64,000 nt of DNA from Promethearchaeota archaeon (GCA_048937405.1 JBHLNF010000002.1:96001-160000); one strand, 5' to 3'; counted from the stretch's first letter, positions 36,010 through 53,294 are shown. Notes: a model not told the origin generated them from the sequence alone. Program-made: numbers and translations.

Positions 36010-36330
36010 TTATAGGCATTTCCAAGAATCTACAAGTAATTGATATTCAAAATATTCATCATATATTTTAGATCTTGGATTTTTTCTTTTTCCCTCCACT
36101 TTAATCAATTTCCCTACTATTTCAATTTTTTCGGTACAGGACAGGGAATCCTTGCTGTATATTACAATTTGGTATCCATCGTCTAGATTAAAGTAGTTAA
36201 TAAATGGATGAGATTCTATTAATTTTGTAAGGTGTTGCCATATTTCCTTAGCAATTTTGCCAATAATCTTAACTCGTTTTCCCACACTCTCTTTAAAATC
36301 CGAATATTTTGTTAAAATAATCATTATCAT
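36010..36330 (-). CDS. Small OB-fold-like hypothetical protein (host gene at provirus boundary)
   Basis: VGKRVKIIGKI...IEIVGKL beta-rich pattern; start moved to ATG 36330. Confidence 0.6.
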   Translation of the reverse strand: MIMIILTKYSDFKESVGKRVKIIGKIAKEIWQHLTKLIESHPFINYFNLDDGYQIVIYSKDSLSCTEKIEIVGKLIKVEGKRKNPRSKIYDEYFEYQLLVDSWKCL

Positions 36331-36641
36331 TTTTTTAAATAAATTTTTTTTATAATTTCTACTGTGCAAGACCAGTATAAAAACTTTCTTCTATAAGAAA
36401 ATGAGTATTTTATTATTTTAATTATTTTCTAAGTATTGTAGGATGCAAGTATGGTCTATTATATTTGTTGCACCATGATAGAATGATAATAGTTTAAAAT
36501 ATGCATATTTTATTTTGTCATAGAATAAGAGAAGGAATCCCTAAAGTATGTTTTATTAAGGTTTTTATTTTTAAATTTCTCAGATCATAAAATATGAGAA
36601 GAAGGTCTCTACTCCTCAAATTTAAAAATCATTCCTACTTG

Positions 36642-36926
36642 CTATATAAAAATTCTTCCAAAATCTTGAGTTTGTCCATTATTTTCTTCAGAACTTTCTT
36701 CTATATATAATTCTCCTTTCTTAGTAGATTCTTCAATTTCTATTATTTTTCCAACTTTCTCAAATATAAAATCAAATTTCTTCCAAAGATCTTTAAAAGT
36801 TCCTAATAAATCAATTAGAATCATTTTAGCGTCCTCTAAAGTAAACTCTTTGCTTAAAAGGATAGATCGAATGTTCTTTTCTATTCCTTCAATAACTTCT
36901 TTAATCTCCGCACTCATTAGAACCAT
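36642..36926 (-). CDS. Provirus hypothetical protein (helical, acidic)
   Basis: Last ORF of the minus-strand viral operon. Confidence 0.6.
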   Translation of the reverse strand: MVLMSAEIKEVIEGIEKNIRSILLSKEFTLEDAKMILIDLLGTFKDLWKKFDFIFEKVGKIIEIEESTKKGELYIEESSEENNGQTQDFGRIFI

Positions 36927-36946
36927 CTTCAGTTTCTCTTCGAATA

Positions 36947-37129
36947 CTATACAAAAATTTCAAATTGTTCAAAAGACTTAATTTTACCAATAGTAATTTC
37001 ACTTTTTATTTCTGTCGATTCATAAACATCAATTCTTTGTTTTGAATTATCTGCTGTGATGTATATATAAGGACCAAATGATTTTATTAAACTATCTTCG
37101 TTATTAGATTTATAAATATTTTTTTCCAT
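36947..37129 (-). CDS. Provirus hypothetical protein
   Basis: 60-aa ORF in operon, GAGATGA upstream. Confidence 0.55.
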   Translation of the reverse strand: MEKNIYKSNNEDSLIKSFGPYIYITADNSKQRIDVYESTEIKSEITIGKIKSFEQFEIFV

Positions 37130-37146
37130 AATTTCATCTCTTTAAA

Positions 37147-37272
37147 TTAATCTTTTATTACTCTAATAATATTAACCCAATTAAATATTTCAATTACACA
37201 GATAATAGATATGATTAATGCTGCTATTGAAAACAAACTAAACAATATGGTAAAAAACTTTATCTTATTCAC
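37147..37272 (-). CDS. 41-aa single-TM protein (holin-like candidate), not in ORF track
   Basis: GAGGTGA RBS, GTG start, MNKIKFFTILFSLFSIAALIISIICVIEIFNWVNIIRVIKD*. Confidence 0.6.
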   Translation of the reverse strand: MNKIKFFTILFSLFSIAALIISIICVIEIFNWVNIIRVIKD

Positions 37273-37289
37273 TCTTTATCACCTCTTCA

Positions 37290-40200
37290 TTATAAACTTT
37301 TCTTAACATAATATTCTACTTGAATACCAACCAAATAAATATCATTCGCCCCATCATCATTAACCCATCCTACTAAATAAGAAGCATCGGTCAATATATC
37401 TGCAGCAACCCATGTATAAGATGCATCAATATAGGTATCGGCAACTGCAAATGTAATATCCATATTTAGTCCAGCTTCAATGTTATTTGCAGGGGTAGTG
37501 CCATCACATTTATATTCGACTAATGAAAATTGTCCATCAATGGTAAGGTCATCTCCTTCACTAAAAATAAGCGTTATGGTAATGTTCTTTGAACTATCTA
37601 CAGTATTAGAAATATAAAAGTTTCCCCATGCTGATTGAGTTGGCTCTAAATACCATCCTTTTGTAGATATAGTCCCCGTATTGGAATATAAAGGAACATT
37701 AACAACCACTAAATCTGTTAAAGGGTCTACAATATAATTAGACCCATCCGAATTATCTGAAATATCTGTATTATTACCATTAAATACATTAGTAACACAC
37801 ATGTTATATTGGGCATCCGCATTTAATTCAAGTCCAATGTCATTCGATAATAACTGATTTCCAATAATAGTATTATAGTCACCGTCATCAATCCTTATGC
37901 CCTCAGATGTATTTGAATAACATTTGTTTGAAGTTACAAAATTAAAATCTGAATCTGCAGCAATTAAAATTCCAATCCCATTATCATCCAATCTATTATC
38001 TGAAACGGTATTATAACATGCATCATAAAGATATATCCCCGTTGTAGCGTTATCATGACAATCATTATCAAAAATAGAATGGTTATCATGTGCAGAAATT
38101 ATGCCGCTATGCCCATTATGATGTAGATGATTCTCATAAACCTTACATTTACCGCCTTGAGGATAAACCCCAATATATAGATAGGATATTTCACAGTTTC
38201 TTACAATACAATCAGAAAGTCCTATAATACCATAGCCTTTTTTATCAGCATCTCCAGTTATTGTGAGATTCTCGCAAATGACTAAATTATCATTCGCTTC
38301 ATTAATATCTATTATTATTTTTGCTTGAGTTGAAACATCTGAAGCATCAATAGAAAAATTCATTAATATACAAGATGCAGCATTATCAATATCAAATGCA
38401 CTTCTATCACCCGCACAGTCTATTGTCGCACCAATACCATCGATAATTATATTAACATTAGCATTATCTATTGTTAAAGTTGCAGTTAAAGTATGAGTTC
38501 CAGGTAAGAGTTTTATTACACCTCTTCCTATACTTTCTACTTCATCAATAGCAACTTGAATATCATCACCAGGATTCACAGCAATTACATTATCTCCCAT
38601 TGAATTCTTTAGGGTATCCCACATAGAAGTTGTATTATTCCAAACAATCCAATCCCCTAATTCATACCATCGTGCGGGTGTATTATCTGCTCCGCCTGGT
38701 GCTGCTTTATATCCGTCATCATCACATATATAAAAATCCCCATTCTCAGGTGCTGCGGGATACGCATCACCCGGTGTATATGTTCCCTTATAAACTACGG
38801 CTTCTGCTAATGTTACAACAACATCTCGAACTGCATTTTTACTTGGTGCAATTGTAGTGACACCATTCCAGTTATCAGCATCATAGACAGCATCACTAAC
38901 TTTCGCATCTGCATAAGCCTTAATTGATTGTTGAGTTGCTAATTTGGTTGCACTATTAGAGCCCATATTATCTTCATCTAAACAATCAGATATATTTGGA
39001 GTTGATGGAAAATCAATATTATGTTCATTAAGGTCTAAATCGCCCCCTAACTGTGGCGTCACATCTTCCACTAAATTCTCAAATACTTCATGGTGAGCAT
39101 TATCATCTGCAGTATGAGTTGCAATTAGCGCATCAATCGCAGCATCAATCGCTTCACCATCTACAATCTCGGCATCTATGATGTCTCTTACACCTGTTCC
39201 AAACCCAACAATATCACCATAGGTTATAATGGCGCCTGCTGCCCAAGGTGTAGAGACCAACCTATCAGAAAGATTTTTCCTGGCAACACTATTCACTCTT
39301 CTAATTGCCATACCAAGCTTCTCATCCCATTCTGTTTCTCCTAATCCAGCATGAATAATTGTCTGAATACCATCAATACCACGTGGTTTTCTTTCAATCA
39401 TCCGAATTGGATATGTTGCTTTCGCTATGGTTGGTCGTGCAAAAGTAATATCGACAGTTGTACCTAATTGGATTGCGGTCCGCGTACCATTCAGCGACAA
39501 GCGCATTGAGGGTCTTTTATCTTTATAATAGTCTAACTGAGTGTTGGCAACCTCTTGAGCATCAGATTTAGTCATAATAGTATTATCAATTATAATTTTG
39601 GTAATGTTTCCCGAAACTGTGAAGTCTTCAGCTGGTGAAAAAATATTATAGGCTGCATTTCCCCATACTTCTACTCTTTTAACTTGATTGCATGCGTCCT
39701 CTAAATCCCAGTCCCAATCAGCATCACTTACCGTAAGGTCTACACCAGAATCTACAAAATCATCAGGCTTGACAATTTTAATTCGCCTCGTTGCATGGTC
39801 TTCGCACCAAATTGCACCCTCAACCTGACATACAGAGGTAAGTGCGGATATACAATATAAACCCTTAAAATGTCGTGCGATATACTTAGAAAGGGTACTT
39901 ACAATATTGAGAGGCACACCTGCTTGACTTGCAATATCTGAAAGAATGGTATTAGTATTTTGTCCAATTTTAAAAGAATCATTTACAGCTACACCTGTAT
40001 TGGTCCAGGTAACACCTGCACAGGTAAGAGAATTAGCAGCAGAATCGGTTATAGATTCCATAATAGGTGATATATTCAGAGTATTATGATAAACGGTAAC
40101 CTTGATATAATCACATTCCATATCGATTTCAGCATAACCACCCATTGTAATATATTGACCTCTTGTATAGATACGCAATCCTTTTAATTCTGTGAAATTA

Positions 40201-41117
40201 CCTCCTGCAGTATTGAAATACTTAGCCATTTCCGTAGCACTTTCTTCAATAGTAATAAGAGGTGAATCTGTCCAAATCTTAGTAGGTCCTTTTCCCGAAT
40301 ACTCAAGAGTTTTTAAAGTGATCCAATCCGCATCTTTTTTTATTTGTAAATAACCTCTAAGATACCAAAAAGAATAGGGATCACAATCTGGAATATCAAA
40401 TCCATATTGATAATCAATTTCAATTTTTTGAATACTATGCGTGTCTGGAATTACTGTTCCATCAATCGTAAATGATGTAGAAGTCGCATATGTTTGATTA
40501 TTATCACCATCAACAGTAACAACTAATTCATCATCATCATCTTTGGTAATAGTGGAAGCAGCATTACCCGCAGAAGAGTCTTCCCCTGAAATATCCACAG
40601 CAGATGCATCCCATTCCTTAGAGATAGTACTCGTAGTATTATCCACTATGAGTAAGCCTTTATCTTGCTGTCCACTTACCCATTGGTCATCATCCCAATC
40701 AAAATCCTCATCTCCTCCCGCATCATATTCGTTGTTTTCATTCTCATCATAATAAACGTGCAATTCTGCATCTGCATCAACTTGTTGGACTTTTCCTTCA
40801 GCCAGGATATAATTACTATTAAATGATGCCCATTCTAATCTTACGCCAAATCCTACCAAATGAAGCATAAGATACTTAGCTGTAAAATTTTTTTTGGCTA
40901 AATAACCATCAAAAATAACATTTTCATCATCATCCTCAACTCTCATAGGACAGAAATCTCTTGAATACCATGTACTATATAAGGCTCCTTCAAAATCTCT
41001 TAGTTTAACATCACATAATCCATACATATTATTTCGGGTAGTAATAGTGGGATACTCTACAACATCCCCAACTTCTGTCCAAGAATCATCTTCATCAGCA
41101 TCATGATAAAGTTTCAT
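37290..41117 (-). CDS. Baseplate-hub / tail-fibre fusion with C-terminal right-handed beta-helix (receptor-binding protein)
   Basis: Hub-like N-terminal half (NQVKRVEVWG, IQLGTTVDI), fibre motifs TPQLGGDLD and LATQQSIKAY, parallel beta-helix repeats (N...GI...N). Confidence 0.75.
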   Translation of the reverse strand: MKLYHDADEDDSWTEVGDVVEYPTITTRNNMYGLCDVKLRDFEGALYSTWYSRDFCPMRVEDDDENVIFDGYLAKKNFTAKYLMLHLVGFGVRLEWASFNSNYILAEGKVQQVDADAELHVYYDENENNEYDAGGDEDFDWDDDQWVSGQQDKGLLIVDNTTSTISKEWDASAVDISGEDSSAGNAASTITKDDDDELVVTVDGDNNQTYATSTSFTIDGTVIPDTHSIQKIEIDYQYGFDIPDCDPYSFWYLRGYLQIKKDADWITLKTLEYSGKGPTKIWTDSPLITIEESATEMAKYFNTAGGNFTELKGLRIYTRGQYITMGGYAEIDMECDYIKVTVYHNTLNISPIMESITDSAANSLTCAGVTWTNTGVAVNDSFKIGQNTNTILSDIASQAGVPLNIVSTLSKYIARHFKGLYCISALTSVCQVEGAIWCEDHATRRIKIVKPDDFVDSGVDLTVSDADWDWDLEDACNQVKRVEVWGNAAYNIFSPAEDFTVSGNITKIIIDNTIMTKSDAQEVANTQLDYYKDKRPSMRLSLNGTRTAIQLGTTVDITFARPTIAKATYPIRMIERKPRGIDGIQTIIHAGLGETEWDEKLGMAIRRVNSVARKNLSDRLVSTPWAAGAIITYGDIVGFGTGVRDIIDAEIVDGEAIDAAIDALIATHTADDNAHHEVFENLVEDVTPQLGGDLDLNEHNIDFPSTPNISDCLDEDNMGSNSATKLATQQSIKAYADAKVSDAVYDADNWNGVTTIAPSKNAVRDVVVTLAEAVVYKGTYTPGDAYPAAPENGDFYICDDDGYKAAPGGADNTPARWYELGDWIVWNNTTSMWDTLKNSMGDNVIAVNPGDDIQVAIDEVESIGRGVIKLLPGTHTLTATLTIDNANVNIIIDGIGATIDCAGDRSAFDIDNAASCILMNFSIDASDVSTQAKIIIDINEANDNLVICENLTITGDADKKGYGIIGLSDCIVRNCEISYLYIGVYPQGGKCKVYENHLHHNGHSGIISAHDNHSIFDNDCHDNATTGIYLYDACYNTVSDNRLDDNGIGILIAADSDFNFVTSNKCYSNTSEGIRIDDGDYNTIIGNQLLSNDIGLELNADAQYNMCVTNVFNGNNTDISDNSDGSNYIVDPLTDLVVVNVPLYSNTGTISTKGWYLEPTQSAWGNFYISNTVDSSKNITITLIFSEGDDLTIDGQFSLVEYKCDGTTPANNIEAGLNMDITFAVADTYIDASYTWVAADILTDASYLVGWVNDDGANDIYLVGIQVEYYVKKSL

Positions 41118-41121
41118 AAAA

Positions 41122-41592
41122 TCACCATAAAGATGGGATATAACTTATTATTGTTTGAATATTATGTAATCCTTCATTTGCACTTGCTAATTGTTGAGCT
41201 ATTTTTGATTGTTCTAATTGAGCTGCTATTAACGCTGTAGTTGCAATTCCAATATTTAAAAATCCTATAGCCGCTTGTATTTGCATCCCAGGTGTTACAG
41301 CTTCTGCTGTTAATATTGGTGTTAATAAAGAGATTGCAGAAATTCCTGCACTTATTAATGATGTAAAGAAGTAGCTTACAGAAGTTCCAGTAGCTCTTAC
41401 AAAAGCTGCTCCTGCTAAATAAGAAGACCTTGCCATACTTAAAACTTTCTGATAAGCATAAGTAGTTTTTTCCTCTACTTCTTGAACAGTTTTATTAGTA
41501 GCAGTTTCTACTTGCTGTCTTTTATTTTCTACTTCGTCTAATTTTTGTTTTGCTACAGTAGTATCTACATCAAGATTAACCTTCTCAGACAT
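41122..41592 (-). CDS. Putative short tape-measure protein
   Basis: Position between tail tube and hub; KVNLDVDT N-terminus, coiled coil, Ala-rich hydrophobic helices. Confidence 0.5.
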   Translation of the reverse strand: MSEKVNLDVDTTVAKQKLDEVENKRQQVETATNKTVQEVEEKTTYAYQKVLSMARSSYLAGAAFVRATGTSVSYFFTSLISAGISAISLLTPILTAEAVTPGMQIQAAIGFLNIGIATTALIAAQLEQSKIAQQLASANEGLHNIQTIISYIPSLW

Positions 41593-41600
41593 AATATCAC

Positions 41601-42833
41601 CTAAGAAACGTGTTTATAATGAGTAGACCAATTTGTTTGATCTTCTATAGTAAAATCTACATCTATTGATTCTGCTTTTAAGAAAATTCGAGCATTATAA
41701 AAACCTTCAAATTGATGACCTGTTTCTTGAACATCTACAACATAGCAATTATAAAATTCATGAGTTACATAGTAATTCTCATCTGGTTTATATACAGTAA
41801 TATTAATTTGACGAGCTTCTCTATCTATATAATCTGTCCAAATTTTCTTCCGTTCTAATACTGCTTCTAATGTTAATTGTATAGTTTTATGCTTGTAGAG
41901 ATATACTGTTCCGTATTTGGAGTTATTATCCAAAACTACTTTATATTCTTGCTCTTGATACCATTGAGCCTTCCAACATTCTAGAAAGTGAATATTTTGA
42001 TCTGCTACATCCCAGTAAACATCAGGTTTTCCATTATAACAATTTTCTGCATTATAACCTGGGTTTGAAGGATCTGTTGTTAATCTTGGTCTTTCTTTAT
42101 CAAATAGCTTTATTGTATCTCCTGCTAAATTTGCATTAGGAGTAGAATCTAATGTTAATACTGGCGGATCTGATGCATCAGAATCCTCTACATTAAAAGT
42201 CTCGTCTTCATTATCTCCTCCACTTACAAATACTAACCAACCATTATAATAATCTACTGCTCTCTGTGGCTCATCTGTTAAAGTAATATCATTTCCAACA
42301 ACACTTGCTACAGTATCGTCAGCTTTCCATTGTCCTCTATCATCTTCTAACCTGCCAAAAATCCATTCACTCTCAACTAAGAAAGGAGCACCTTCCATAG
42401 CTGTACATCCTAATTTAATCATATAACAATCTACAGCTTGAGCTAATCTATCAACACTACCGTCATTTAACTCATCTCTAATCGTAATAGGTAAAGGTAA
42501 ACCTGTATCTAATACTTCTGCATTATGAATATTAGCTCCTCCGCCATCTTTAGTAACTTGTTTTAAAAACCAACAAATATACTGAGGAGTTATAGGTAGA
42601 AAATTGATTTTAAAAGGTTTATATTTTGGTCTAATAGGGGTTATATTAGATTCTCTCGAATCATAAGAATAATATTCTTCTACGTCATTTACTATTGATG
42701 GTAGAGTCCAATCACCACAAGACTCATCAAATTCTCCAAAAAAATAAGTTGTATCATCGGCATCATCAATAGCTTCTACACCTACACCCGATTGATATGC
42801 CCATACTAATCTACTTGATTTATTTCCTGTCAT
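41601..42833 (-). CDS. Putative major tail tube protein with inserted beta domain
   Basis: Position after neck genes; beta-rich; insert containing DYYNGWLVFVSG. Confidence 0.55.
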   Translation of the reverse strand: MTGNKSSRLVWAYQSGVGVEAIDDADDTTYFFGEFDESCGDWTLPSIVNDVEEYYSYDSRESNITPIRPKYKPFKINFLPITPQYICWFLKQVTKDGGGANIHNAEVLDTGLPLPITIRDELNDGSVDRLAQAVDCYMIKLGCTAMEGAPFLVESEWIFGRLEDDRGQWKADDTVASVVGNDITLTDEPQRAVDYYNGWLVFVSGGDNEDETFNVEDSDASDPPVLTLDSTPNANLAGDTIKLFDKERPRLTTDPSNPGYNAENCYNGKPDVYWDVADQNIHFLECWKAQWYQEQEYKVVLDNNSKYGTVYLYKHKTIQLTLEAVLERKKIWTDYIDREARQINITVYKPDENYYVTHEFYNCYVVDVQETGHQFEGFYNARIFLKAESIDVDFTIEDQTNWSTHYKHVS

Positions 42834-42877
42834 TTTTTTACCTTTTTAGTTAATTATTTAATTTTCAATTTAATCTT

Positions 42878-43297
42878 TTAACTTGTTGACCAAGTTATAT
42901 CTAAAAATATATCTTCATACCATCTTCCGTCATCCTGTTCATAAGCTTTATTACTATATGCTAATTTAATATAATTCATAACACTAGGACGAGTATAATC
43001 AGTTATAGTTTCTCTTCTATTAAATTTTAATATCCCTTCTAAGATATTATTAAAAGCACTCATTAAATTAGCTTCATTAGTTTCTGATAATTTTATTTTA
43101 TATCTTTTAACATAACGATAATTATCTGCTGATAATACTTCTCCTGGTTCTACAAGCATTCTATGTGTTTTTCCTGCCCCATATTTATCACTATAAATAC
43201 TTTTTGATTCAGAAATATGCTTAACTGTTGCTGATGTGTGTACTTTCCCTAAGAAAGTTCTAATATAATCTAATTCACTATCATCTGCCATTTTCAC
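42878..43297 (-). CDS. Putative tail terminator
   Basis: Size and position before the tail tube gene. Confidence 0.45.
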   Translation of the reverse strand: MKMADDSELDYIRTFLGKVHTSATVKHISESKSIYSDKYGAGKTHRMLVEPGEVLSADNYRYVKRYKIKLSETNEANLMSAFNNILEGILKFNRRETITDYTRPSVMNYIKLAYSNKAYEQDDGRWYEDIFLDITWSTS

Positions 43298-43756
43298 TCA
43301 CTTTCTTCCAAAATAATTTTCTTTTTCTCTCGCTAATACAGTCATCATTCTTTCCTTTGCAAATTCTACCATTTTATCAAAGAAATACCCTACTGCATTA
43401 GGATCATCTAATATTTTCCTTCCTCTTCTTTCACCACTATGCCGTACTCTCATTGTTGGCATATTATTTACATATATAGCATAATCCACGTCTGTTGCTA
43501 ATACTAATCTTAATATCTCATTTTGTATATATGAAGTATGTAACTTCTGTAATAAATCATTTCTTAGATTTCCTGTATCTTTTGGTACTTTTTGTTTAAT
43601 CCATTGTTCTAATAAGAAAATCATCTCTTTTAAAACAGCTCGTAGAAATTTCTGTATGTTTTGTTTAACTTGTTCATATGTAAATTTATTTCCACGTACT
43701 ATATAGCTGATTTCTGCCTTTGATAATTCTCCTATAACTGTTTGTTTTAAACTCAT
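43298..43756 (-). CDS. HK97 gp10-like neck/tail-completion protein
   Basis: VPKDTGNLR and DVDYAIYVN motifs. Confidence 0.7.
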   Translation of the reverse strand: MSLKQTVIGELSKAEISYIVRGNKFTYEQVKQNIQKFLRAVLKEMIFLLEQWIKQKVPKDTGNLRNDLLQKLHTSYIQNEILRLVLATDVDYAIYVNNMPTMRVRHSGERRGRKILDDPNAVGYFFDKMVEFAKERMMTVLAREKENYFGRK

Positions 43757-45647: not shown

Positions 45648-46421
45648 TTAACCTGTTTTATGTTGTTTTACAAACTTCCATTCTGTGAAAACTTTTGAAG
45701 TTTCTTTATCAGTAGGAAGATCATGCTTCATTTTATCTTGAAAACCTAACTTGATTTTCTGCTTCTCTTTTTCTTCTTCGTCTCCTTCTTCTTCTGGTTT
45801 AGGTTCAGGCTTATCCTTAGCCTTAGACAATTCTTCTAGTTGTTTTTTTAAGAGATTAATCTCTTCTAAGAGAATTTTACTTGTAATTTCTTGTTCCTCG
45901 TTATTCTCTTCTGAGTTATCCTCTTTATTATTTTCTTCTGATTCTTGAGGATCTTCTGGCTCCTCATTATTATCTGTATTTTGTCCATCTACTATATCAG
46001 GACCAGCAGATGGCTCATCTCCTCTATCTCGTTTTGTAATATTACACACCTTTAAAGGACATTTTTGATCAAAATTACCAACAGCTATATGGTTGATTCC
46101 TATAATTTTATTATCTTGAATTTCATATTCTATTGAAACATTAAAATCTCCATCTTTATTACTATGAAGTTTAATTCCTTCATCTAAATCTTCTTGATTC
46201 CATCCTACATACAAAAGCTTGTTTCTTTTATCTAAATCCCAGTATTTAATAGAACCTACTTGTTCTCTTACATCACCATGACTTCTCTTAATAGGAATTG
46301 GTGTATTTCCTCTACTTTTTAGAGCTACTTCAATTTCTTCCCATTTATCATAGAAATCATCTGGTTTATAATCTCCTAGAGCAGCAACACCACTATAATC
46401 GAACTTTCTACTTTTTATCAT
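45648..46421 (-). CDS. Putative prohead protease/scaffold fusion
   Basis: PIKRSH...VG, VSIEY, NHIAV, CP...C (DUF2213-like), followed by acidic linker and coiled coil. Confidence 0.65.
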   Translation of the reverse strand: MIKSRKFDYSGVAALGDYKPDDFYDKWEEIEVALKSRGNTPIPIKRSHGDVREQVGSIKYWDLDKRNKLLYVGWNQEDLDEGIKLHSNKDGDFNVSIEYEIQDNKIIGINHIAVGNFDQKCPLKVCNITKRDRGDEPSAGPDIVDGQNTDNNEEPEDPQESEENNKEDNSEENNEEQEITSKILLEEINLLKKQLEELSKAKDKPEPKPEEEGDEEEKEKQKIKLGFQDKMKHDLPTDKETSKVFTEWKFVKQHKTG

Positions 46422-46614
46422 ATTTTTCCTCTAATCTTTTCATATAAGGTATTAAATCCTTATTACAATAGGGGCATACAGTCACGTTTTTTGAATCTTC
46501 AATAAATTTCTTTCTTGTTGGAAGAAAATCAAAATCTCCACTCCATAACAATTCTGCTAACTTTTTACAGCAAAAGAAAGCTTGAAAATTCTGATAGTTT
46601 TCTTCTTCACTCAT
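46408..46614 (-). CDS. Small Cys-containing (Zn-binding) viral protein
   Basis: FCC...CPYC; ATGA overlap with upstream ORF. Confidence 0.6.
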   Translation of the reverse strand: MSEEENYQNFQAFFCCKKLAELLWSGDFDFLPTRKKFIEDSKNVTVCPYCNKDLIPYMKRLEEKYDKK

Positions 46615-46739
46615 TTTCCATTCTTGTGTTTTTTTACTAAATATGCTCTATAGGCTCGTTCTGCATCTCCTTGAGTTTTATAGATACATTGTCCTTCGCC
46701 AATTCTCCACTTTCCATTACTGCATTTCTTCACTGGCAT
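46611..46739 (-). CDS. 42-aa basic viral protein, not in ORF track
   Basis: MPVKKCSNGKWRIGEGQCIYKTQGDAERAYRAYLVKKHKNGK*; abuts the portal stop and overlaps the next ATG. Confidence 0.7.
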   Translation of the reverse strand: MPVKKCSNGKWRIGEGQCIYKTQGDAERAYRAYLVKKHKNGK

Positions 46740-47942
46740 TTAATCATATTTCTCTACATAGTTCTTTTCTTTTTTAAGATAATCAGCATCTTTTTCTTCA
46801 GGTTCTTCTACAGGTTCTAATTCTTGCTTTTCTTCATTTACAGCTTTATTATAGTCTTCTGAATCTACTAAATTTCCTCCATCATCAAATACTATCTCTT
46901 TAACACTTTCATTCAAAGCTTCACCATCTTCCTGCTTTAAAAGTAGTTTTCTAATAAATGGTATATATTCTTGAAAGATTTGTTTTAATGTAGTCCATAT
47001 TGCTATTCTATCTTCTTTTGCTGCAGATTGAGCTCCTTTAGGATCTCCTATAAACCATCTCACTGGAAATCCAGATGATCCAGAAATTATCTTCATTAAC
47101 TCTTCTAAATCTGCTGTCCAGTTTACTTTATTACCAGAACCTTCCCAAGTAATCGTAGGTGCTTGTCCTGTCATAGTAGAACTTTTCAGCAATAAAACAC
47201 TTCTGGTATTTGTCTTCTTAATAGCTGTAATTAAATTTGACTGCTGATCACTGTACTCGTTTGGATCAAGAGATAAAATCATCATCCCATTTCCTATTCT
47301 TGCATCATATTCTGCCATAGCTGAAACTATCTCATTATATCTCACAGAAGAATCCCATACAGCTTTAATTGGAGCAACTCCTTGTCTATTTAATTTAGAC
47401 TTCCCTACTGAGAAGTGAATCACATCTTCTGGAAATAAATCATAATCACTTACAGCTTCACTTTGTTCTATATTCTCTCCTTCTTCTAACTCAGGTTTGA
47501 CCTTATATTTCTCAATCTTTAATTTCTTGAATTTAATCTTCTGAATATCTGTAGAATCATGAACAAGCCAATCTCTGTCTTCTAAAACATCATCTTTTAG
47601 TGGTTCTACAACACAGTACCCATGTGTTCTAGTAGCTTGAATAACATCATTTAAGAGATTATTATAAGAGAGTTTTTCCCACTGCTCTTTTAAGTCTTCC
47701 ATTTCATTTCCTACTTTATCTAAGAAAATAGGAGTTCTTTCTGTGATTAAATTAGCTACCCTTTGAACAAGAGCATTAATAATAGGATCGTTTTCTACTC
47801 TAATTTCCCTATGTTTTGGATTACTCCATTTTTTAGCTTTTAGCACTTCTAATTTATCTGCATAAATTGAGGAGTGAATCCATTCATTTGCTCTTTGTAC
47901 TTTTCCTACAACCCATTCCTTTGCTCTTCGTAATACTCCCAT
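46740..47942 (-). CDS. Portal protein
   Basis: DPIINAL, HGYCVV, FPEDVIHF, GVAPI, SGFPVRWFIG; position after terL. Confidence 0.8.
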   Translation of the reverse strand: MGVLRRAKEWVVGKVQRANEWIHSSIYADKLEVLKAKKWSNPKHREIRVENDPIINALVQRVANLITERTPIFLDKVGNEMEDLKEQWEKLSYNNLLNDVIQATRTHGYCVVEPLKDDVLEDRDWLVHDSTDIQKIKFKKLKIEKYKVKPELEEGENIEQSEAVSDYDLFPEDVIHFSVGKSKLNRQGVAPIKAVWDSSVRYNEIVSAMAEYDARIGNGMMILSLDPNEYSDQQSNLITAIKKTNTRSVLLLKSSTMTGQAPTITWEGSGNKVNWTADLEELMKIISGSSGFPVRWFIGDPKGAQSAAKEDRIAIWTTLKQIFQEYIPFIRKLLLKQEDGEALNESVKEIVFDDGGNLVDSEDYNKAVNEEKQELEPVEEPEEKDADYLKKEKNYVEKYD

Positions 47943-47943
47943 A

Positions 47944-48138
47944 TTATTTTACCATTAGCAATTGTTTTAAATTATCTATATATTTTCCATATCCTTCCTT
48001 CCTCAGAAATGCTTCAATAGATCCATAGTTCCTTTCAATTTCTTGTACTACTACTCTTCTTAACGTTCCTTCATAACCAATCTGGCAAATTAAGTAGGTA
48101 TCTAAATCTGCATAACCAATATCTATATCATTAAACAT
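47944..48138 (-). CDS. Provirus hypothetical protein (64 aa)
   Basis: Start revised to ATG 48138 (MFND...) to remove the long overlap with the KTSC gene. Confidence 0.55.
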   Translation of the reverse strand: MFNDIDIGYADLDTYLICQIGYEGTLRRVVVQEIERNYGSIEAFLRKEGYGKYIDNLKQLLMVK

Positions 48139-48499
48139 AGTTCCATCTATATCCTCCTTTCCTAATATTGTAGTAGAAAAACGTACCTTTAGAATGAGCA
48201 TAATAAAACTCTTCAAAAATACTAAACGGTACATCATAGTATTTTGCCATTTTTCCACTAAGAAACTGTACTTTTAATTCTCCTGCTTCTATCGTCTTTC
48301 CTTTTATATATTCAAATCCTGCTATATTAGTAGAGCTTACTGGCATCATAGGATAATCCTTCCATACAAGTCTCCCTACTCTCATAGGACCTATTGCAGG
48401 AGGTTGCTCTTTTCTTGTAGTTGGTGTTAGTAATCTGCTAGGTACAAACCTGCCACTTTCATCTCTCATGTAGGGCTTTGGTCTTCTTCTTCTTACCAT
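48131..48499 (-). CDS. KTSC-domain protein with Arg-rich N-terminus
   Basis: PVSSTNIAGFEY...LKVQFLSG...YYDVP..F....SKGTFFYYNIR; N-terminus MVRRRRPKP. Confidence 0.8.
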   Translation of the reverse strand: MVRRRRPKPYMRDESGRFVPSRLLTPTTRKEQPPAIGPMRVGRLVWKDYPMMPVSSTNIAGFEYIKGKTIEAGELKVQFLSGKMAKYYDVPFSIFEEFYYAHSKGTFFYYNIRKGGYRWNYV

Positions 48500-48502
48500 A
48501 TT

Positions 48503-49837
48503 TTATCCTCCATAATTCCAATTACTATACATTTCCCAAAGATACTTCCTAAAGTAGTAATACACTCCATGCATAAGAGAGTCTACATAATCATCATCTT
48601 TCTTATCTCCGCAGTAATGTAATAACTGTTGTTTTAAAGTAGGATTTTTCACTATAAGCCTATTCTCATCCAGTACATATCTTAATCCTTCTATATACCA
48701 TTCTTTCTGGTTTCCAAAGAACGAGAATTTAGTACTGTAATTACTTTTCTTCATTTTTGAATTTACAACACTTGCTATCGTCTGCGATCCTTCTAAGATA
48801 AACAGTGGATGATATTTCTGCTGAAACTCCCTACATTTAACTAATATCTCTTCATAGGTAGCATTTTGTTTTCCCCACGATTCAAGCTCGTAAATAATAT
48901 TATTCTTAATTGCAAGAACAAACATCGTGCATTCATGTCCCCATCCCCAATCAATAGGACATACAATCTCTCCGTAATTTCCTATCTCATTATAATCAAC
49001 AAATGCTTCTTCGATTTTCTTTGCTTTAAAGTATGCTCCTTCTTCTTCTACCCATTCCATCAGCACTTCCTGTCTCCACATCCTCTCTGTCATTCCTGCT
49101 TTTATCTGCTTCCATGTATCTTCTGAAACCCATATAGCATCCTCTTTTCTTAGAGTAAATTTACTGCATTGTAAATCTTTATCAAACCAAAATGTATGGA
49201 ATCTACTACCTGCTTTTGCAGTTCCTGTAATCCATATATGCATTTCTCTTCCTGTTGCCAACATAGGAAAGATTTTACTCCATACTTCTGGCTCTACTTC
49301 CTGTGCTTCGTCTATAATAACTATATCCGCTTCGTACGTTCCTGTATCTGCTATTGTATTACTATGAGCCATCACAGTAGTGCCATTTTTCAATGTAGTA
49401 TGTGTTTTAGCATCTTGTTTACCCAACAAATCAAGTTTATACTCTAAATCAATTTCTCGTATTGAACTAATTACATAAGAAGCAGTTTCTTTCTTAGAAG
49501 ATAAAATGTGGACTCTGAGTTTCCTTCTTGTTCCTAATAAAATAATTCCTAAAGCGTCAAGGTAGGTTTTACCTGTTTTTCTACATCCAAAAACCATTGT
49601 CATTCCTGGTTGTAGAAAACTTTGTAAAATTTCCTTCTGTTTTGGAACTAACTTTTTAGTTATCTTTTTATAATTAACTGCAAATTTCTTATCTTCAGTA
49701 GTGAGGTAGGGTTCTACATATAGTCTCGCATACAAAGGAAAAATATTAATATAGCTTCTTGCCTTTGCAGGATCTTTACTCGCTTCTGAAATCATTTTTT
49801 CTAAAATTTTCTTATAGTTAAATTCTTCTTCGTTCAA
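48503..49837 (-). CDS. terL: Terminase large subunit
   Basis: Q-motif PKQ, Walker A GCRKTGKT, Walker B VIIDEAQ, TGT coupling motif, nuclease IDWG and DDYVDS. Confidence 0.9.
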   Translation of the reverse strand: MNEEEFNYKKILEKMISEASKDPAKARSYINIFPLYARLYVEPYLTTEDKKFAVNYKKITKKLVPKQKEILQSFLQPGMTMVFGCRKTGKTYLDALGIILLGTRRKLRVHILSSKKETASYVISSIREIDLEYKLDLLGKQDAKTHTTLKNGTTVMAHSNTIADTGTYEADIVIIDEAQEVEPEVWSKIFPMLATGREMHIWITGTAKAGSRFHTFWFDKDLQCSKFTLRKEDAIWVSEDTWKQIKAGMTERMWRQEVLMEWVEEEGAYFKAKKIEEAFVDYNEIGNYGEIVCPIDWGWGHECTMFVLAIKNNIIYELESWGKQNATYEEILVKCREFQQKYHPLFILEGSQTIASVVNSKMKKSNYSTKFSFFGNQKEWYIEGLRYVLDENRLIVKNPTLKQQLLHYCGDKKDDDYVDSLMHGVYYYFRKYLWEMYSNWNYGG

Positions 49838-50030
49838 TGGGTAGGGGTGTCTCTTCGTTTTTTATACAGAGTTCACTTCCTTTATTCTCATATTATAATT
49901 AAGGGAGGGATAAGCTATCCCTACCCTTTATGCATGAAGGAAGTGAAGAATATATGCGGAAGCAACAGAGCAGTTATCCTGACCTTTGAGGTTTGATCTG
50001 ATTGTTACTTCCTTTCTATATCCTATAGGA
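49838..50030 (-). ncRNA. Candidate structured leader RNA / packaging signal upstream of terL
   Basis: Inverted repeats 49958-49967/50003-50012, 49872-49882/49937-49947, 49901-49912/49916-49928, plus competing pair 49839-49846/49919-49926. Confidence 0.5.
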
Positions 50031-50059
50031 GTTTTAACATTTGTAATACGATTTATTAT

Positions 50060-50093
50060 TTTGATAATTATCAAACTAATACATTTAAATTTC
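50060..50093 (-). promoter_or_regulatory. Late promoter (BRE/TATA GAAATTTAAAT) with perfect 16-bp palindrome TTTGATAATTATCAAA (50060-50075)
   Basis: The palindrome lies between the TATA box and the expected start site. Confidence 0.55.
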
Positions 50094-50114
50094 AAAAATT
50101 AGACAATTTTGTAG

Positions 50115-50363
50115 TCATAGCAGAAAAAACAGCGATTTTCAGTTACCTTTTTTTAGTAGAAAAAAAATAAGTATATATATATATATTATATTTTATAAGT
50201 TTTTATTTATATTTTATAATATAATAGTATATTTTATATATTTTATATACCTAGATCGTAAGAAAAAATATATATATAAAAATAGAAATAAATATATAAA
50301 TATATATACATTTTTCTCCATATAAAAAAGGTTGGAAAAATTTCCATGTTTTTTCTGCTATGA
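50115..50363. repeat. Perfect 17-bp inverted repeat enclosing an almost pure-AT core (origin-like)
   Basis: TCATAGCAGAAAAAACA (50115-50131) / TGTTTTTTCTGCTATGA (50347-50363); inner ACCTTTTTT/AAAAAAGGT. Confidence 0.8.
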
Positions 50364-50591
50364 GAATTTATTCGTTCTTCTATCACGCACAACTTTTATA
50401 ATTTTAACAAAAATGTATTATTTTGAAAATTAGAAAACCATCTAATATAATACTTACTCGTCCACATCCTTAGCCAAAATCTAATTTTAATAGTTATCTA
50501 ATCTTTAAACCAATACAATTTTCAAATATTTATAAGTAAGTGGAATTATAGTAGGATGAGAAAAAACTATTTTAAAAAATAATATAAAAAA

Positions 50592-51146
50592 GTGAAAATT
50601 AAAATGACTAAACTATTATTTGAACTCAACGATGTAATTCATAGAAAATTTAAGACCTTCTGCATTAATAAAGGAACAACCATGAAAAAGGAATTAAACA
50701 AATATATCGAGATTCTCCTTAAGGAAAATGACTCTGATCTAAATACAGAAGATCTTACAAAAGCTATTACTGAAAAAGAACGTAAAGAAAAATGGGAATT
50801 AGCTTTAAAACAATATAAAAAGAAAAAAGAATCAAAGAAGGAAAAAAAGAAATATAAACAAAAACAAAGACGTATACAATATGAAGAAGCAGAAAAACTT
50901 TATCATCAGAATAAAATCGTTAAATTACAAGAAAAGAGAGAAGATCTTATTAGAGAATTAGTTAGAAAGAATCCTTTTCTCGATCCCTGGGGGTATGAAT
51001 TTGATAAAGAAATTATACCAGAAATCGAAGAATTTAATAGTAGATATACTCTGAGAGGTCTAATAGCTTTACCTGATCAGACTTTAATAAACATTTGGTA
51101 TAAATTCCAACAAGAAGAAGTAAATAAATTAGAAGGTGATTTTTAA
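50592..51146 (+). CDS. RHH (ParG/CopG-like) DNA-binding protein with coiled coil
   Basis: KLLFELNDVIHRKFKTFCINKGTTMKKELNKYIE. Confidence 0.65.
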   Translation: MKIKMTKLLFELNDVIHRKFKTFCINKGTTMKKELNKYIEILLKENDSDLNTEDLTKAITEKERKEKWELALKQYKKKKESKKEKKKYKQKQRRIQYEEAEKLYHQNKIVKLQEKREDLIRELVRKNPFLDPWGYEFDKEIIPEIEEFNSRYTLRGLIALPDQTLINIWYKFQQEEVNKLEGDF

Positions 51147-51324
51147 AATGTGTACAAAAGAAGAAGCTATGAGAAAACTTGTAGAATTTATGACTCCTGA
51201 AGAATTTACTGAATCTCTTCAGGAGACTGAATCATCTTATAATTATCTTAAAGAAGTATGCTCAGATTTGCAATTACAGTTAAAAATCCTGCGTGAAACT
51301 ATTGCCGAAAAACGAAGCAATTGA
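51136..51324 (+). CDS. Small coiled-coil viral protein
   Basis: Overlapping operon ORF (AGGTGA upstream of an internal ATG). Confidence 0.55.
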   Translation: MIFKMCTKEEAMRKLVEFMTPEEFTESLQETESSYNYLKEVCSDLQLQLKILRETIAEKRSN

Positions 51325-51760
51325 AAAAACTCTTTACAAATATCGAAAATTAGGAAAACAGCATCCAGATATTCCCAAGTGTGAGTTATGTGGTTGTCTT
51401 CTTAAAAAAGATCGTGAATGGGTTTGTCCTAACTGTGGTTTAGTTCACGACAAAATCTTAAATGGAGGAACTGAACGACCTGGTGATTTATCCTTCCAAT
51501 CTGAAGCAGATTTTTCTAAGTTCATGCGTGAAAGTTTAAACGATCGAGCTATTCATAAGAAGCTTCGAAAAAAAGTCTACTTTGAGGAGTATCACAAGGA
51601 TTATTATCAAGGATTTAAAACCGTTAATTTATACGTAGAAGTTCACGAAAAACTCAAAAAATTCTGCATCAGACATAAAATTAAACAATACGTGCTTATT
51701 TCGCAAGTTTTAGATATAATCCTACCAATTTTAGAAGAAAACGTGAATAAAAATGGTTAA
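51293..51760 (+). CDS. TFIIB-type zinc ribbon plus C-terminal RHH-like domain
   Basis: CELCG...EWVCPNCGLV; KTVNLYVEVHEKLKKFC. Confidence 0.65.
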   Translation: MKLLPKNEAIEKTLYKYRKLGKQHPDIPKCELCGCLLKKDREWVCPNCGLVHDKILNGGTERPGDLSFQSEADFSKFMRESLNDRAIHKKLRKKVYFEEYHKDYYQGFKTVNLYVEVHEKLKKFCIRHKIKQYVLISQVLDIILPILEENVNKNG

Positions 51761-51965
51761 TAAGGAGAGATTTTGTACTAGCATTGAACTCAAGGGAGAT
51801 TACGCTGTTTATGTAAGAAAATTGAAAAATATGGGTTTTAATATCTCCAGATTTATACGAGAAGCAATTCAAAACTATGTGAAAATACATTCAAAAAATC
51901 TACAAAAATTAATCATGTTTGCGGATTCTATGAATAAACCTACTAAATTTATAAACGAAGAATAA
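51753..51965 (+). CDS. RHH protein (CcdA/VapB-like DNA-binding)
   Basis: TSIEL...MGFNISRFIREAI. Confidence 0.65.
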   Translation: MVNKERFCTSIELKGDYAVYVRKLKNMGFNISRFIREAIQNYVKIHSKNLQKLIMFADSMNKPTKFINEE

Positions 51966-51976
51966 AAAAGAAGAAT

Positions 51977-53152
51977 TTAGTCAGAAGGTTTTATAACTTT
52001 ACCTTCTTTCTTTTGTTTTTCAATATATTTTTCAAACTTATCTTTATCGATCATAGGAAAAAAAGTATTAACCATCTCTTTCATTAAACTAAACTCTTTC
52101 TTCATGTTACTTATATCTCCTCTTAATTCGAAGTTTTCTTGTTTTAATTTCTTGACTTCTTCTGAAGTTCTATCGTACACTTCACAGTCAATGCAAATAT
52201 TTGGTTCTATTTTTAACCACTGCTTATAAAACCACTCAATATCGAGCAGGTTTTGATTATAACTTCTGCTTAAATTTGTAGCTTTATGACCTAGTAAATG
52301 CTCTCTAAATTCTGCATCAATTTCCCTTGATCTTCTTACCTGACTTGAGAAATATTTCCTAAACGTGTGAGTTTTAATATTTCCTTCTATACCCATTTCT
52401 TTACAAATTGCTTTTAATCTTCTAAGATAATTATTCTTATTAATCTTATTTCCCATTTTAGTTTCAAAGATAAATCCTCCTACAGATTCTATTAAATTTG
52501 ATAGTTCAGTAGGAAAAAACACATAATTAATTTTAACTCCTTCTTTCATTGTTTTAAAGTTTCTAATAAATGAATGATTTTTATACTTTTCAATCTTATA
52601 TTTAGGAGTACATTCAAGAATATCACTAATTCTAAATCCAGTTAATGCTTGGAATTTTAAGATTAATCTATATTCTGGTCTGTGTAAATTGACAAGAATC
52701 TTTTGAATAGTATTTCTATCCAAGATAATTTCATTAACATTTGAACCTGCAGAAACAGTTTGTAATCCATCACTTAAAGGAGATCCTCTATCAGAGTAAA
52801 AAGATTTAATTCTTGATTGAATCATATTCTTCACAGAACCTTCATTAACTCCATCTCGTAATAAACTGCTTAAATATGTGAGTAACCTTTTATTTCTTTC
52901 GTCAATTTCTTCCTCTAAGAATTCAGTAGGATTTTCACACTCGTAAAATCTACAGTAATCATTCAGAGGTTTTAAATAACCTGTGGTGTTAAATCTTGAA
53001 GGTATTTTTCCACTTCGTGCATATTTCTCTACTTTATGGACTATCCAGAGTTTTACATCATTATTCCTAAAGATTGGATATTTTTTCTCCCATTTCTCAA
53101 TTTTCTTCTGTCCAAATACTTCAGTTAAATTTAAATTTTTTAATTCTATCAT
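51977..53152 (-). CDS. int: Tyrosine recombinase/integrase
   Basis: TGFRISD (R), KT, HTFRK (HxxR), LLGH, SRSY (Y); C-terminal coiled coil. Confidence 0.93.
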   Translation of the reverse strand: MIELKNLNLTEVFGQKKIEKWEKKYPIFRNNDVKLWIVHKVEKYARSGKIPSRFNTTGYLKPLNDYCRFYECENPTEFLEEEIDERNKRLLTYLSSLLRDGVNEGSVKNMIQSRIKSFYSDRGSPLSDGLQTVSAGSNVNEIILDRNTIQKILVNLHRPEYRLILKFQALTGFRISDILECTPKYKIEKYKNHSFIRNFKTMKEGVKINYVFFPTELSNLIESVGGFIFETKMGNKINKNNYLRRLKAICKEMGIEGNIKTHTFRKYFSSQVRRSREIDAEFREHLLGHKATNLSRSYNQNLLDIEWFYKQWLKIEPNICIDCEVYDRTSEEVKKLKQENFELRGDISNMKKEFSLMKEMVNTFFPMIDKDKFEKYIEKQKKEGKVIKPSD

Positions 53153-53294
53153 AGGTTACAGAAGGAAGATTTTATTTATAAACTTTATGCTGTGTACGGT
53201 AGATTTTTTATATAAAATCTTTATCATTTTTTTTATTTTTTGTCTCTCTTTACTTTTAATAAACTTTTTAGCCCATATTGAATTTAGTAAAAGA

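Follow-up and report, generated by a model that had tools for sequence, protein, structure and literature searches.

Verdandiviridae (VerdaV1, V2, and V4), known before only as free metagenomic genomes, have the same Asgard host range and belong to the same small genome class as the element described here. They were described from circular contigs, with an integrase unmentioned in their text. The named verdandiviruses are without replication genes, and a TW1-like stabilization protein is encoded at the position upstream of their major capsid protein (MCP) (Medvedeva et al., bioRxiv 10.1101/2021.07.29.453957). Integrated elements have been described from other Asgard archaea. Fylgjavirus 1 (FylV1) of Ca. 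Lokiarchaeum ossiferum B36, an Asgard provirus of ~16 kb, resembles our element in lying between genes, next to an acetyl-CoA synthetase gene and not within a tRNA gene, in a tyrosine-recombinase-like gene, and in having no replication gene, but it has a double-jelly-roll capsid (Varidnaviria) rather than an HK97 capsid (10.64898/2026.02.13.705702). The Opia virus of Atabeyarchaeia is likewise integrated in an Asgard chromosome, but is a larger, Nidhogg-like tailed virus found in another archaeal class (PMC11529989).

Within the window (the whole stretch of 64,000 nucleotides that was analyzed), positions 36354–53211 very probably hold a tailed dsDNA virus of the Caudoviricetes whose genome has integrated into the chromosome of an Asgard host, itself probably a member of the class Lokiarchaeia. 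The element is 16,858 bp long with about 22 genes (16.9 kb vs. 19.5–20.6 kb for verdandiviruses) and, unlike the verdandiviruses as described, it has an integrase and is integrated.

Insertion site and host

The ~17-kb integrated tailed provirus proposed in the first-pass annotation is borne out by empty sites in three relatives (G070:C485 and Logan contigs L063 and L064), which come from three different assemblies and are ~91% identical. All three match the window at 90–96% identity up to 35299 and resume from 53200, with ~20–28 nt between the two matches that correspond to window 36322–36350; the insertion point is identical to the base in each (for G070, by three-way alignment). Because the left flank is joined straight to 53200 in these relatives, the junctions were placed in a shared ATTTTTTAT core, as follows.

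36343–36353, no strand: attL core (ATTTTTTTTAT), from the three-way alignment with the G070 empty site; same junction from L063 and L064
53203–53211, no strand: attR core (ATTTTTTAT), from alignment with the empty sites

The 9-bp core is present at both ends of the element and in one copy in G070, and L063 and L064 have AAATTATTTAT at the core position; being short and A/T-only, the core counts for little unless the empty sites are considered too. The borders first proposed, 36324 and 53233, are correct to within 30 bp but lie 20–30 bp outside these junctions. Positions 35300–36321 are also absent from the empty-site relatives, and thus the comparison spans two events. Two divergently transcribed host genes flank the element: the attL core overlaps a TATA-like element upstream of a host 119-aa gene, and the attR core lies ~85 bp upstream of the start of a host DUF998 gene.

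The host is an Asgard archaeon, as had been claimed: its genome has five actin genes (with matches reaching 441 bits), a pair of Snf7 genes, and ~90 Ras-family GTPases, many of them on the contig that carries the element. The 90% cluster containing the ACS of the window has Asgard labels at NCBI, ‘Candidatus Odinarchaeota archaeon’ (the G070 protein) and ‘Promethearchaeota archaeon’. The class is probably Lokiarchaeia.

Head and packaging genes in relation to Verdandiviridae

All ORFs named in the first-pass annotation are present and open, and an independent gene caller recovered the same gene set on the Logan contigs. The late genes are all encoded on the minus strand (49837 to 36642) with an intergenic spacing of mostly −14 to +8 nt; the description of this operon as translationally coupled holds for most junctions, but not for all, as five gaps measure 44–160 nt. 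Two small genes (64 and 42 aa) had been overlooked. The head and packaging genes are as follows.

48503–49837, minus: large terminase subunit (TerL), 444 aa; phrog_2, 1.9e-28, residues 50–432
48131–48499, minus: KTSC-domain protein with an Arg-rich N-terminus; PF13619, 2.9e-12
47944–48138, minus: conserved small gene, 64 aa; homologs in L040 and L043, called independently
46740–47942, minus: portal protein, 400 aa; 44% identity (8e-104) to the VerdaV1 ‘portal protein’ (NCBI name)
46611–46739, minus: 42-aa gene; ORF, independent gene caller
46408–46614, minus: 68-aa gene with a Cys motif; ORF, independent gene caller
45648–46421, minus: 257-aa protein with a conserved N-terminal domain and an acidic coiled-coil tail; 42–47% identity to relatives
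45162–45593, minus: candidate capsid decoration/stabilization protein; 52–57% identity to relatives
44209–45156, minus: MCP, 315 aa; 32% identity (4e-37) to the VerdaV1 ‘major capsid protein, HK97-like’

The profile matches of TerL and the KTSC protein agree with the labels these genes had been given, as does homology to VerdaV1 proteins for the portal, MCP, and decoration protein. The portal itself matches Phage_portal_3 weakly (E 0.008) and had no match in a PDB profile search. The MCP is HK97-like by homology, with a match to phrog_264 (2.9e-6), weak but consistent encapsulin matches, and 22 bits against Pfam Major_capside, under the cut-off of 26.8. The 257-aa protein had no match in Pfam or PHROG; its nearest language-model clusters (DUF2213, Peptidase_S78, and XkdF, 0.90–0.93), which serve as a lead only, suggest a scaffold, possibly a protease-scaffold, and the protease label is likewise only a lead.

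In a comparison that covered the first 11.8 kb of VerdaV1 (LC711077), the head module (TerL, KTSC, portal, decoration, and MCP) shows 28–48% identity to that virus of Lokiarchaeia, and the order TerL–KTSC–portal–stabilization protein–MCP is the same in Verdandiviridae. TerL is 48% identical to those of VerdaV1, V2, and V4; the KTSC gene lies between TerL and portal in VerdaV1 and in all relatives too; and the decoration candidate is 28% identical to the product of the gene just upstream of the VerdaV1 MCP. In a quick, unrooted maximum-likelihood tree of 34 TerLs, the element falls in a clade of 11 sequences (SH-aLRT 100) that forms a group of 12 with P0012 (93), and VerdaV1, V2, and V4 fall in a clade of 19 (99); the TerLs of the element’s clade are 442–467 aa long vs. 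493–556 aa in the clade of the named verdandiviruses. Placement inside the named verdandivirus clade was rejected, since the TerL belongs to a well-supported sister clade. The resemblance to verdandiviruses suggested in the first-pass annotation thus stands for the head module (TerL 48%, portal 44%, MCP 32%), but does not extend to the tail module or, by the TerL tree, to membership of that clade.

The closest head modules are those of L040 (JGI Ga0073583_1212964), L041 (CAZPOX010000040.1), L043, and IMG/VR UViG_3300031699_000037 (TerL 53–59%, portal 58–65%, MCP 48–52% identity), with no integrase on the contig parts compared. Unlike the element, these contigs carry a VerdaV-type tail module (344-aa MTP, two 76-aa genes, and a 445–547-aa tape measure protein, TMP). 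Divergent from TerL, L040 and L041 encode a DUF5906 gene and L043 a 514-aa AAA-type gene; the DUF5906 gene in these relatives indicates that the lack of a replication gene is a feature of the element, not of the whole clade.

Tail module, integrase, and control region

The neck, tail, and remaining late genes are as follows.

43753–44124, minus: head–tail adaptor candidate by position only, 123 aa; homologs in L045–L047 and G244
43298–43756, minus: HK97 gp10-like neck/tail-completion protein; PF04883, 1.4e-5, 26.4 bits vs. cut-off 21.4; phrog_5, 1.2e-4
42878–43297, minus: neck/tail-terminator candidate by position only, 139 aa; homologs in L045–L047 and G244
41601–42833, minus: major tail tube protein, 410 aa; AF2 model, pLDDT 67.6
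41122–41592, minus: 156-aa coiled-coil and hydrophobic protein at the tape-measure position; homologs of 153–161 aa between tube and hub in L045–L047 and G244
37290–41117, minus: hub–fiber fusion, 1275 aa; AF2 model, pLDDT 82.6
36947–37129, minus: 60-aa gene with no assigned function; ORF
36642–36926, minus: 94-aa gene; ORF

The adaptor candidate had no PDB match and the terminator candidate no PDB profile match; the 94-aa gene had no family match in profile searches. The 60-aa gene has a 203-bp, 100% identical copy on contig C1, next to a type I restriction operon, and unitig depth at this gene is 51.8 vs. ~30. The tube is predicted to comprise two fused tube domains with an Ig-like insert at residues 167–247, and its model matches the P74-26 tube (8ed0, Z 19.9 over 300 aa), the SH-Ab15497 MTP (Z 18.9), and T5 pb6 (Z 15.2), with a Foldseek value of 1e-7. 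Residues 1–625 of the hub–fiber protein are modeled as a gp27/Mu gp44-like hub with an inserted CBM-like sandwich at ~165–345; the hub matches the tail of Haloferax tailed virus 1 (HFTV1; 9h4p, Z 24.8 over 321 aa) best, followed by Mu gp44 (Z 20.4), and, by Foldseek, lambda and T5 tail-tip proteins (1e-12); a beta-helix follows at residues 942–1128 (Beta_helix, 1e-21). The names gp10 (PF04883 above cut-off), tube, and hub/fiber given earlier are consistent with these results. The fused tubes of P74-26, SH-Ab15497, and T5 pb6 are alike in predicted fold, but identity (tubes and HFTV1 hub) is only 8–16%; very long tails and correspondingly long tape measures are found in those phages, but the element has a protein of 156 aa at the TMP position. 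The 156-aa protein is probably a short TMP, a label that, like its language-model neighbors (TMP_2 fragments, 0.87), is a lead only.

Verdandiviridae likewise have a short tape measure, lack replication genes, and carry an adhesin domain at the C-terminus, and the last 110 aa of the fiber are 31% identical to the VerdaV1 adhesin C-terminus; apart from this domain, the verdandivirus tail module (347-aa MTP, chaperone pair, 236-aa TMP, and adhesin) gave no BLASTP match at 1e-3. A homologous, collinear neck/tail cassette (~120, 180, 135, 408, 155, and 1000 aa) is found in L045, L046, and L047 (Logan/ENA viral contigs of 18–22 kb; tube 51–57%, hub 35–53%, and 156-aa protein 35–38% identity), in which no integrase was seen and in which the head/packaging genes are unrelated to those of the element by BLASTP. 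By sequence comparison, the element is therefore a mosaic, with a head/packaging module sister to Verdandiviridae and a neck/tail module from another uncultivated virus group.

The genes and regions upstream of TerL are as follows.

49838–50603, no strand: divergent control region, 77% A+T; sequence composition, inverted repeat
50604–51965, plus: four small early/regulatory genes (180, 58, 155, and 70 aa); weak ParG, CcdA, RHH, and Zn-ribbon matches
51977–53152, minus: tyrosine integrase, full length, 391 aa; PF00589, 1.5e-13, 51.4 bits vs. cut-off 27.1, residues 144–301

The integrase also matches phrog_1 (3.9e-17), with no match by phmmer against PDB, and the full R-HxxR-H-Y set reported earlier is present by pattern (R174, H262-x-x-R265, H289, and Y298). 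An SSV-type integrase (attP inside the gene, gene split) was rejected, as the 391-aa ORF is intact and lies 50 bp inside attR. The early genes are RHH-like and Zn-ribbon-like by weak matches, and the 155-aa and 70-aa genes have homologs beside the DUF5906/AAA-type (514–531 aa) genes of L040 and L043 (BLASTP, 1e-10 to 1e-14). The control region contains a perfect 17-bp inverted repeat (50115–50131 and 50347–50363) around an A/T-only core, and relatives keep a non-coding stretch of 680–780 nt upstream of TerL. Pfam/PHROG-type profile searches recognized no small terminase, lysis, or replication gene in the element, which agrees with the earlier reading of no replication enzyme.

The same layout occurs in a provirus of another genus of the same Asgard family (G244:C78, ~0.5–16.4 kb): one strand encodes fiber, tail, neck, head, and TerL in that order, small plus-strand genes come next, and an integrase closes the element beside host genes. 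Judged from protein identities (integrase 50%, hub 45%, tube 33–36%), it has its integrase and tail module in common with the element and a different head; it differs in a 529-aa TerL of phrog_38, a tube without the Ig insert, and a DNA methyltransferase.

Proposed life style and alternative explanations

We infer that the element is temperate and dependent on host replication. Integration would have come about by integrase-mediated recombination between attP and an attB located in the promoter region, and the RHH-type regulators encoded across the 750-bp A/T-rich control region would govern the switch; the element would be replicated by host enzymes and would retain the ability to excise. The virion would be a small siphovirus, its tail of ~23 nm (156 residues × 0.15 nm) built of pseudo-hexameric trimer rings.

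Alternatively, the element could have lost the ability to complete an infection cycle, either as a cryptic or defective provirus or through domestication into a GTA- or tailocin-like element that forms particles. The absence of a recognized replication, lysis, or small-terminase gene, the presence of two small genes where the closest head-module relatives have a DUF5906 gene, and the failure to find an excised circle, a re-joined attB, or an excision joint among the assembled contigs of the source run are in keeping with such decay, which we nevertheless consider unlikely. Named verdandiviruses also do without replication genes, and the element appears intact, as had been proposed: none of the 15 late genes is truncated relative to its homologs (TerL 444 vs. 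442–467 aa, portal 400 vs. 367–400, MCP 315 vs. 304–318, tube 410 vs. 406–411, 156-aa protein vs. 153–161), no internal stops interrupt the genes, and both att cores are intact, as is the integrase. Copies at least 99% identical occur in runs of two studies. The TerL type was found in only one of 399 Asgard species genomes, the element’s own (E 1e-10), and in none of 53 same-genus genomes; its absence at the same site in close relatives indicates that the element arrived recently and was not vertically fixed. A gene transfer agent, as a fixed vertical locus without integrase, was rejected on the absence from 398 genomes, the empty site in three relatives, and the presence of an integrase.

That a free viral contig was misjoined to an Asgard contig, or that the contig is non-Asgard, is highly improbable despite the 29-contig assembly, its estimated contamination of 5.7%, and a unitig depth of 40–50 in the left flank vs. 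28–30 in the provirus, since both junctions are spanned by unitigs of the source run (a single one of 24 kb extends from 37125 across attR and well into host sequence, another covers attL), the insertion point is shared to the base, and the 565-kb contig on which the element sits (C28) carries many Ras-family GTPase genes within tens of kb of the window.

Returning to the integrated, temperate virus, its precise insertion in an Asgard chromosome ties a lineage related to verdandiviruses directly to a host. More tentatively, it may be an inducible virus, the founding member of a lineage of family rank beside Verdandiviridae, that with the G244 provirus defines a group of temperate siphoviruses of one Asgard family, in which the integrase and a P74-26-type short-tail cassette are kept and whole head modules are swapped. 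If so, the integrase, together with the 9-bp att core located in a host TATA element, would provide a naturally occurring system of site-specific integration for Lokiarchaeia-like archaea.

The provirus and its insertion site

The window lies on a 565-kb contig of the source genome G000 (4.47 Mb, 29% G+C). A DNA search of same-genus genomes identified a contig, G070:C485, that aligns to the window with 90% identity as far as 35299 and again, with 96% identity, from 53203 on; 22 nt separate the two segments. The same join is present in L063 (24 kb; syntenic with the window over 8 kb on the left side) and L064, both of them Logan contigs of different runs. The intervening letters of these relatives are those of window 36322-36350, and all three therefore lack the provirus. 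In a three-way alignment, G070 tracks attL up to ATTTTTTAT and attR from that point; the element measures 16,858 bp. Both junctions are bridged by unitigs of the source run, attR by a 24-kb unitig that extends from 37125 into host DNA and attL by a second one; together with the empty sites, this bears out the first-pass annotation of an integrated provirus. The exact ends proposed at that stage did not hold: they followed a 31-nt repeat (D4) that is just 81% alike and was rejected as the true border, the shared core being shorter. In the assembled contigs of four public runs, neither an attB joint (36350>53205) nor an attP back-joint appeared, a negative that carries no weight in assembled contigs; a contig joint (36064>43804) and loose ends fall in low-complexity or repeated sequence.

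Features of the provirus (window coordinates)
36343-36353, attL core, with two extra T (three-way alignment)
minus strand, right-handed beta-helix within the 1275-aa hub-fibre protein (1e-21)
minus strand, HK97-gp10-like neck protein (score above the Pfam cut-off)
minus strand, KTSC-domain protein (PF13619, 2.9e-12)
minus strand, TerL (phrog_2, 1.9e-28)
between late and early genes, control gap of 750 bp, 77% A+T
50604-51965, four small genes, opposite in direction to the late genes
51977-53152, integrase gene (391 aa), convergent with the four small genes (PF00589, 51.4 bits against a cut-off of 27.1)
53203-53211, attR core (three-way alignment)

The integration site is a short promoter region between a host 119-aa gene and a DUF998 gene, and the att core, as read from the sequence, overlaps a TATA-like box approximately 25 nt upstream of the 119-aa gene ATG. 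ARAGORN and Rfam detected no genes for tRNAs or other RNAs at the two junctions; thus, the integrase is not tRNA-targeting.

The empty-site relatives (loci L013, L063, and L064) also have a separate 1,022-bp deletion (window 35300-36321) that takes most of a nitroreductase gene and the entire 119-aa gene. In these relatives, 116 bp from the 3' end of the nitroreductase gene survive as a stump, joined to the start codon of the 119-aa gene, which indicates that the left flank of the window is the ancestral state. The 119-aa gene (35997-36360), which has faint KH-like matches, shows 70-80% DNA identity in most of 53 same-genus genomes, where its neighbors are undetectable by BLASTN; its summed depth reaches 144 at 36028, with numerous branching contigs, and it looks like a multi-copy family. 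Unitig depth in the source run is 40-50 over the left flank (35015-36048) and 28-30 over the provirus and right flank (36019-54500); the excess could reflect a second strain that shares the left flank alone, or repeats. To the right of the DUF998 gene, a 7.2-kb stretch (54107-61306) that includes a 1578-aa protein without a Pfam match is replaced in the syntenic L063 by a gene for a 159-aa acetyltransferase, and is therefore a second variable island adjoining the integration site. Further left, Rfam detected a 102-nt tRNA match (17610-17711; 43.8 bits) that probably contains an intron, since ARAGORN missed it, and an 875-aa protein (14581-17208) has its best genome-contig relatives in Woesearchaeota (DPANN) and assorted bacteria (≤47% identity), consistent with a gene that may have been horizontally acquired.

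Gene content and the head module

The provirus encodes 17 open genes in the same direction on the minus strand, from 49837 down to 36642. The same set, along with additional 64-aa and 42-aa genes, was recovered by an independent gene caller from two Logan contigs that carry this DNA. The integrase scores above the PF00589 cut-off, and the catalytic set that had been proposed for it was found in full by pattern (R174, H262-x-x-R265, H289, and Y298), whereas phmmer gave no match to it in the PDB. Direct family matches to the MCP (phrog_264, 2.9e-6) and the portal are weak, and PDB profile searches with the tube, hub, portal, and two neck candidates (139 aa and 123 aa) returned no significant match. 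Family searches recognized no replication, lysis, or small-terminase genes in the provirus, in agreement with the initial reading that a replication enzyme is missing. Within the control region, 215 bp of near-pure A/T are enclosed by a perfect inverted repeat of 17 bp (TCATAGCAGAAAAAACA and its complement; 50115-50363), which makes this stretch a candidate for an origin or a packaging site; relatives retain a long non-coding stretch at this position but not the repeat.

The head module is related to that of the verdandiviruses. The gene order TerL, KTSC, small gene, portal, scaffold-like gene, decoration protein, and MCP is common to the four contigs with the closest head modules (L015, L040, L041, and L043) and to the Lokiarchaeia virus VerdaV1 (L042), whose counterparts are named KTSC, portal, and HK97-like MCP by NCBI. 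Identities to the close group are 58-65% (portal), 48-52% (MCP), and 52-57% (decoration protein), vs. 44%, 32%, and 28%, respectively, to VerdaV1. TerL has 34 relatives, of which the closest 11 are 51-61% identical (393-467 aa), and is 48% identical to those of VerdaV1, V2, and V4 (E about 1e-110); a genome-contig search with TerL found no relative. In a quick maximum likelihood tree with an unresolved root, the provirus TerL falls in an 11-row clade (support 100) that forms a 12-row group with row P0012 (93), apart from the 19-row clade that holds the named verdandiviruses (99). The proposed kinship to verdandiviruses is upheld, with the provirus TerL placed outside the named clade.

Gene content next to the head module differs among the close relatives: L040 and L041 encode a DUF5906 gene divergent from TerL and L043 a 514-aa AAA-type gene, whereas the provirus has 180-aa and 58-aa genes instead. 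The 155-aa and 70-aa genes of the provirus have homologues in L040 and L043.

The neck and tail module

The resemblance to verdandiviruses that had been suggested applies to the head module (gene order, TerL, portal, and MCP) but not to the neck and tail, apart from the fibre C-terminus: five of the six neck and tail proteins have no match on verdandi-type contigs, and in the sixth, the last 110 aa of the fibre match the VerdaV1 adhesin. Relatives of the 410-aa tube protein (50-83% identity) are encoded on 18-22 kb contigs, and in three of these viral contigs (L045-L047) the entire neck and tail cassette is collinear and 31-57% identical, beside unrelated head genes. Judged from these sequence relationships, the tail module originates outside the verdandi-type viruses.

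The predicted tube fold (pLDDT 67.6) resembles the tail tube of P74-26 (Z 19.9 over 300 aa), the major tail protein of SH-Ab15497 (Z 18.9), and T5 pb6 (Z 15.2), with a predicted Ig-like insert at residues 167-247. Fused tube proteins of this kind assemble into trimeric, pseudo-hexameric rings in those phages. In the 1275-aa protein, residues 1-670 have 128 representative relatives and are modeled as a gp27/Mu gp44-type hub (pLDDT 82.6; best match the Haloferax tailed virus 1 tail, with Z 24.8 over 321 aa), with a predicted carbohydrate-binding-like sandwich inserted at residues ~165-345. Between tube and hub is a 156-aa protein that is not a truncation, since its length is maintained (153-161 aa) in all relatives; its position, composition, and a weak language-model lead tentatively suggest a candidate TMP.

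In run X4 of a second study, 590 nt of the C-terminal part of the fibre (37723-38312) contain 53 differences and four gaps, while the provirus elsewhere is at least 99% identical; on this comparison, the segment appears to be a local variation hotspot in the receptor-binding end of the fibre. At the same end of the provirus, 203 bp holding a 60-aa gene (36952-37154) are 100% identical to G000:C1 12607-12809, with a unitig depth of ~2x at the repeat. The C1 copy immediately follows the hsdR gene of a type I restriction operon, and the surrounding island also encodes an RNase H-like protein and a helicase of the NERD-UvrD type; the identity points to a putative recent exchange between the provirus end and this defence island. 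C1 (17.6 kb) was rejected as a second viral copy, being a host defence island.

Host, distribution, and significance

Five genes of the actin family (best score 441 bits) and two of the Snf7 type are present in G000, along with ~90 genes for Ras-family GTPases, many of the latter on C28, the contig that carries the provirus. In the 90% cluster that includes the ACS of the window, NCBI assigns the ACS proteins to Asgard MAGs, that of G070 as 'Candidatus Odinarchaeota archaeon' and another as 'Promethearchaeota archaeon.' The host is accordingly Asgard, as first proposed, and its class is likely Lokiarchaeia. No CRISPR array was identified in G000, where three candidates proved to be coding tandem repeats, and no spacer-like short near-exact matches to the provirus were found in 53 same-genus and 399 phylum genomes, a weak negative, with only 2-5 candidates per genome scored.

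Three samples from one study and one run from a second contain pieces of the provirus with at least 99% identity. A TerL profile at 1e-10 gave no other match in 399 species genomes of the phylum. Searching these genomes at the DNA level revealed a second provirus, in a different genus within the same Asgard family (G244:C78, ~500-16400), with the same layout over ~16 kb and host genes adjoining its integrase end. It shares the hub-fibre protein (1355 aa, 45% identical), the 156-aa protein, the neck genes, and the integrase (50% identical), but has a tube without the Ig insert, a different TerL type (phrog_38, 8.8e-42), and a DNA methyltransferase. Integrase homologues in G077 and G005 were rejected as related proviruses, their neighborhoods having no gene related to the virus.

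Verdandiviruses were described as 19.5-20.6 kb circular contigs without replication genes and with a median TMP of 259 aa, 'likely lytic' and linked to Asgard archaea via CRISPR spacers only (Medvedeva et al., 10.1101/2021.07.29.453957), and a 2026 survey contains further Verda-like contigs. Among other Asgard proviruses, Fylgjavirus 1 is a 16.1-kb Lokiarchaeum provirus but has a double-jelly-roll capsid (10.64898/2026.02.13.705702), and the Nidhogg-like Opia has an Atabeyarchaeia host (PMC11529989). Our literature search found no report of an integrated or integrase-bearing verdandivirus relative, and none that pairs Verdandiviridae with a provirus or integrase.

The provirus is real and apparently intact, as the first-pass annotation had essentially concluded. 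The most fitting description is a temperate sister lineage of the verdandiviruses that is mosaic in makeup and directly linked to its host. Otherwise, the virus is a conventional prokaryote-type tailed virus, with no bearing on the origins of eukaryotic viruses. The integrase and mapped att site would provide a possible integration tool once a related host is cultured. Integrated as it is in a 565-kb contig of an Asgard genome that is 100% complete, the virus forms an unambiguous virus-host pair and is evidence both for temperate capacity in a verdandivirus-related lineage and for the swapping of whole head and tail modules in the evolution of Asgard tailed viruses.
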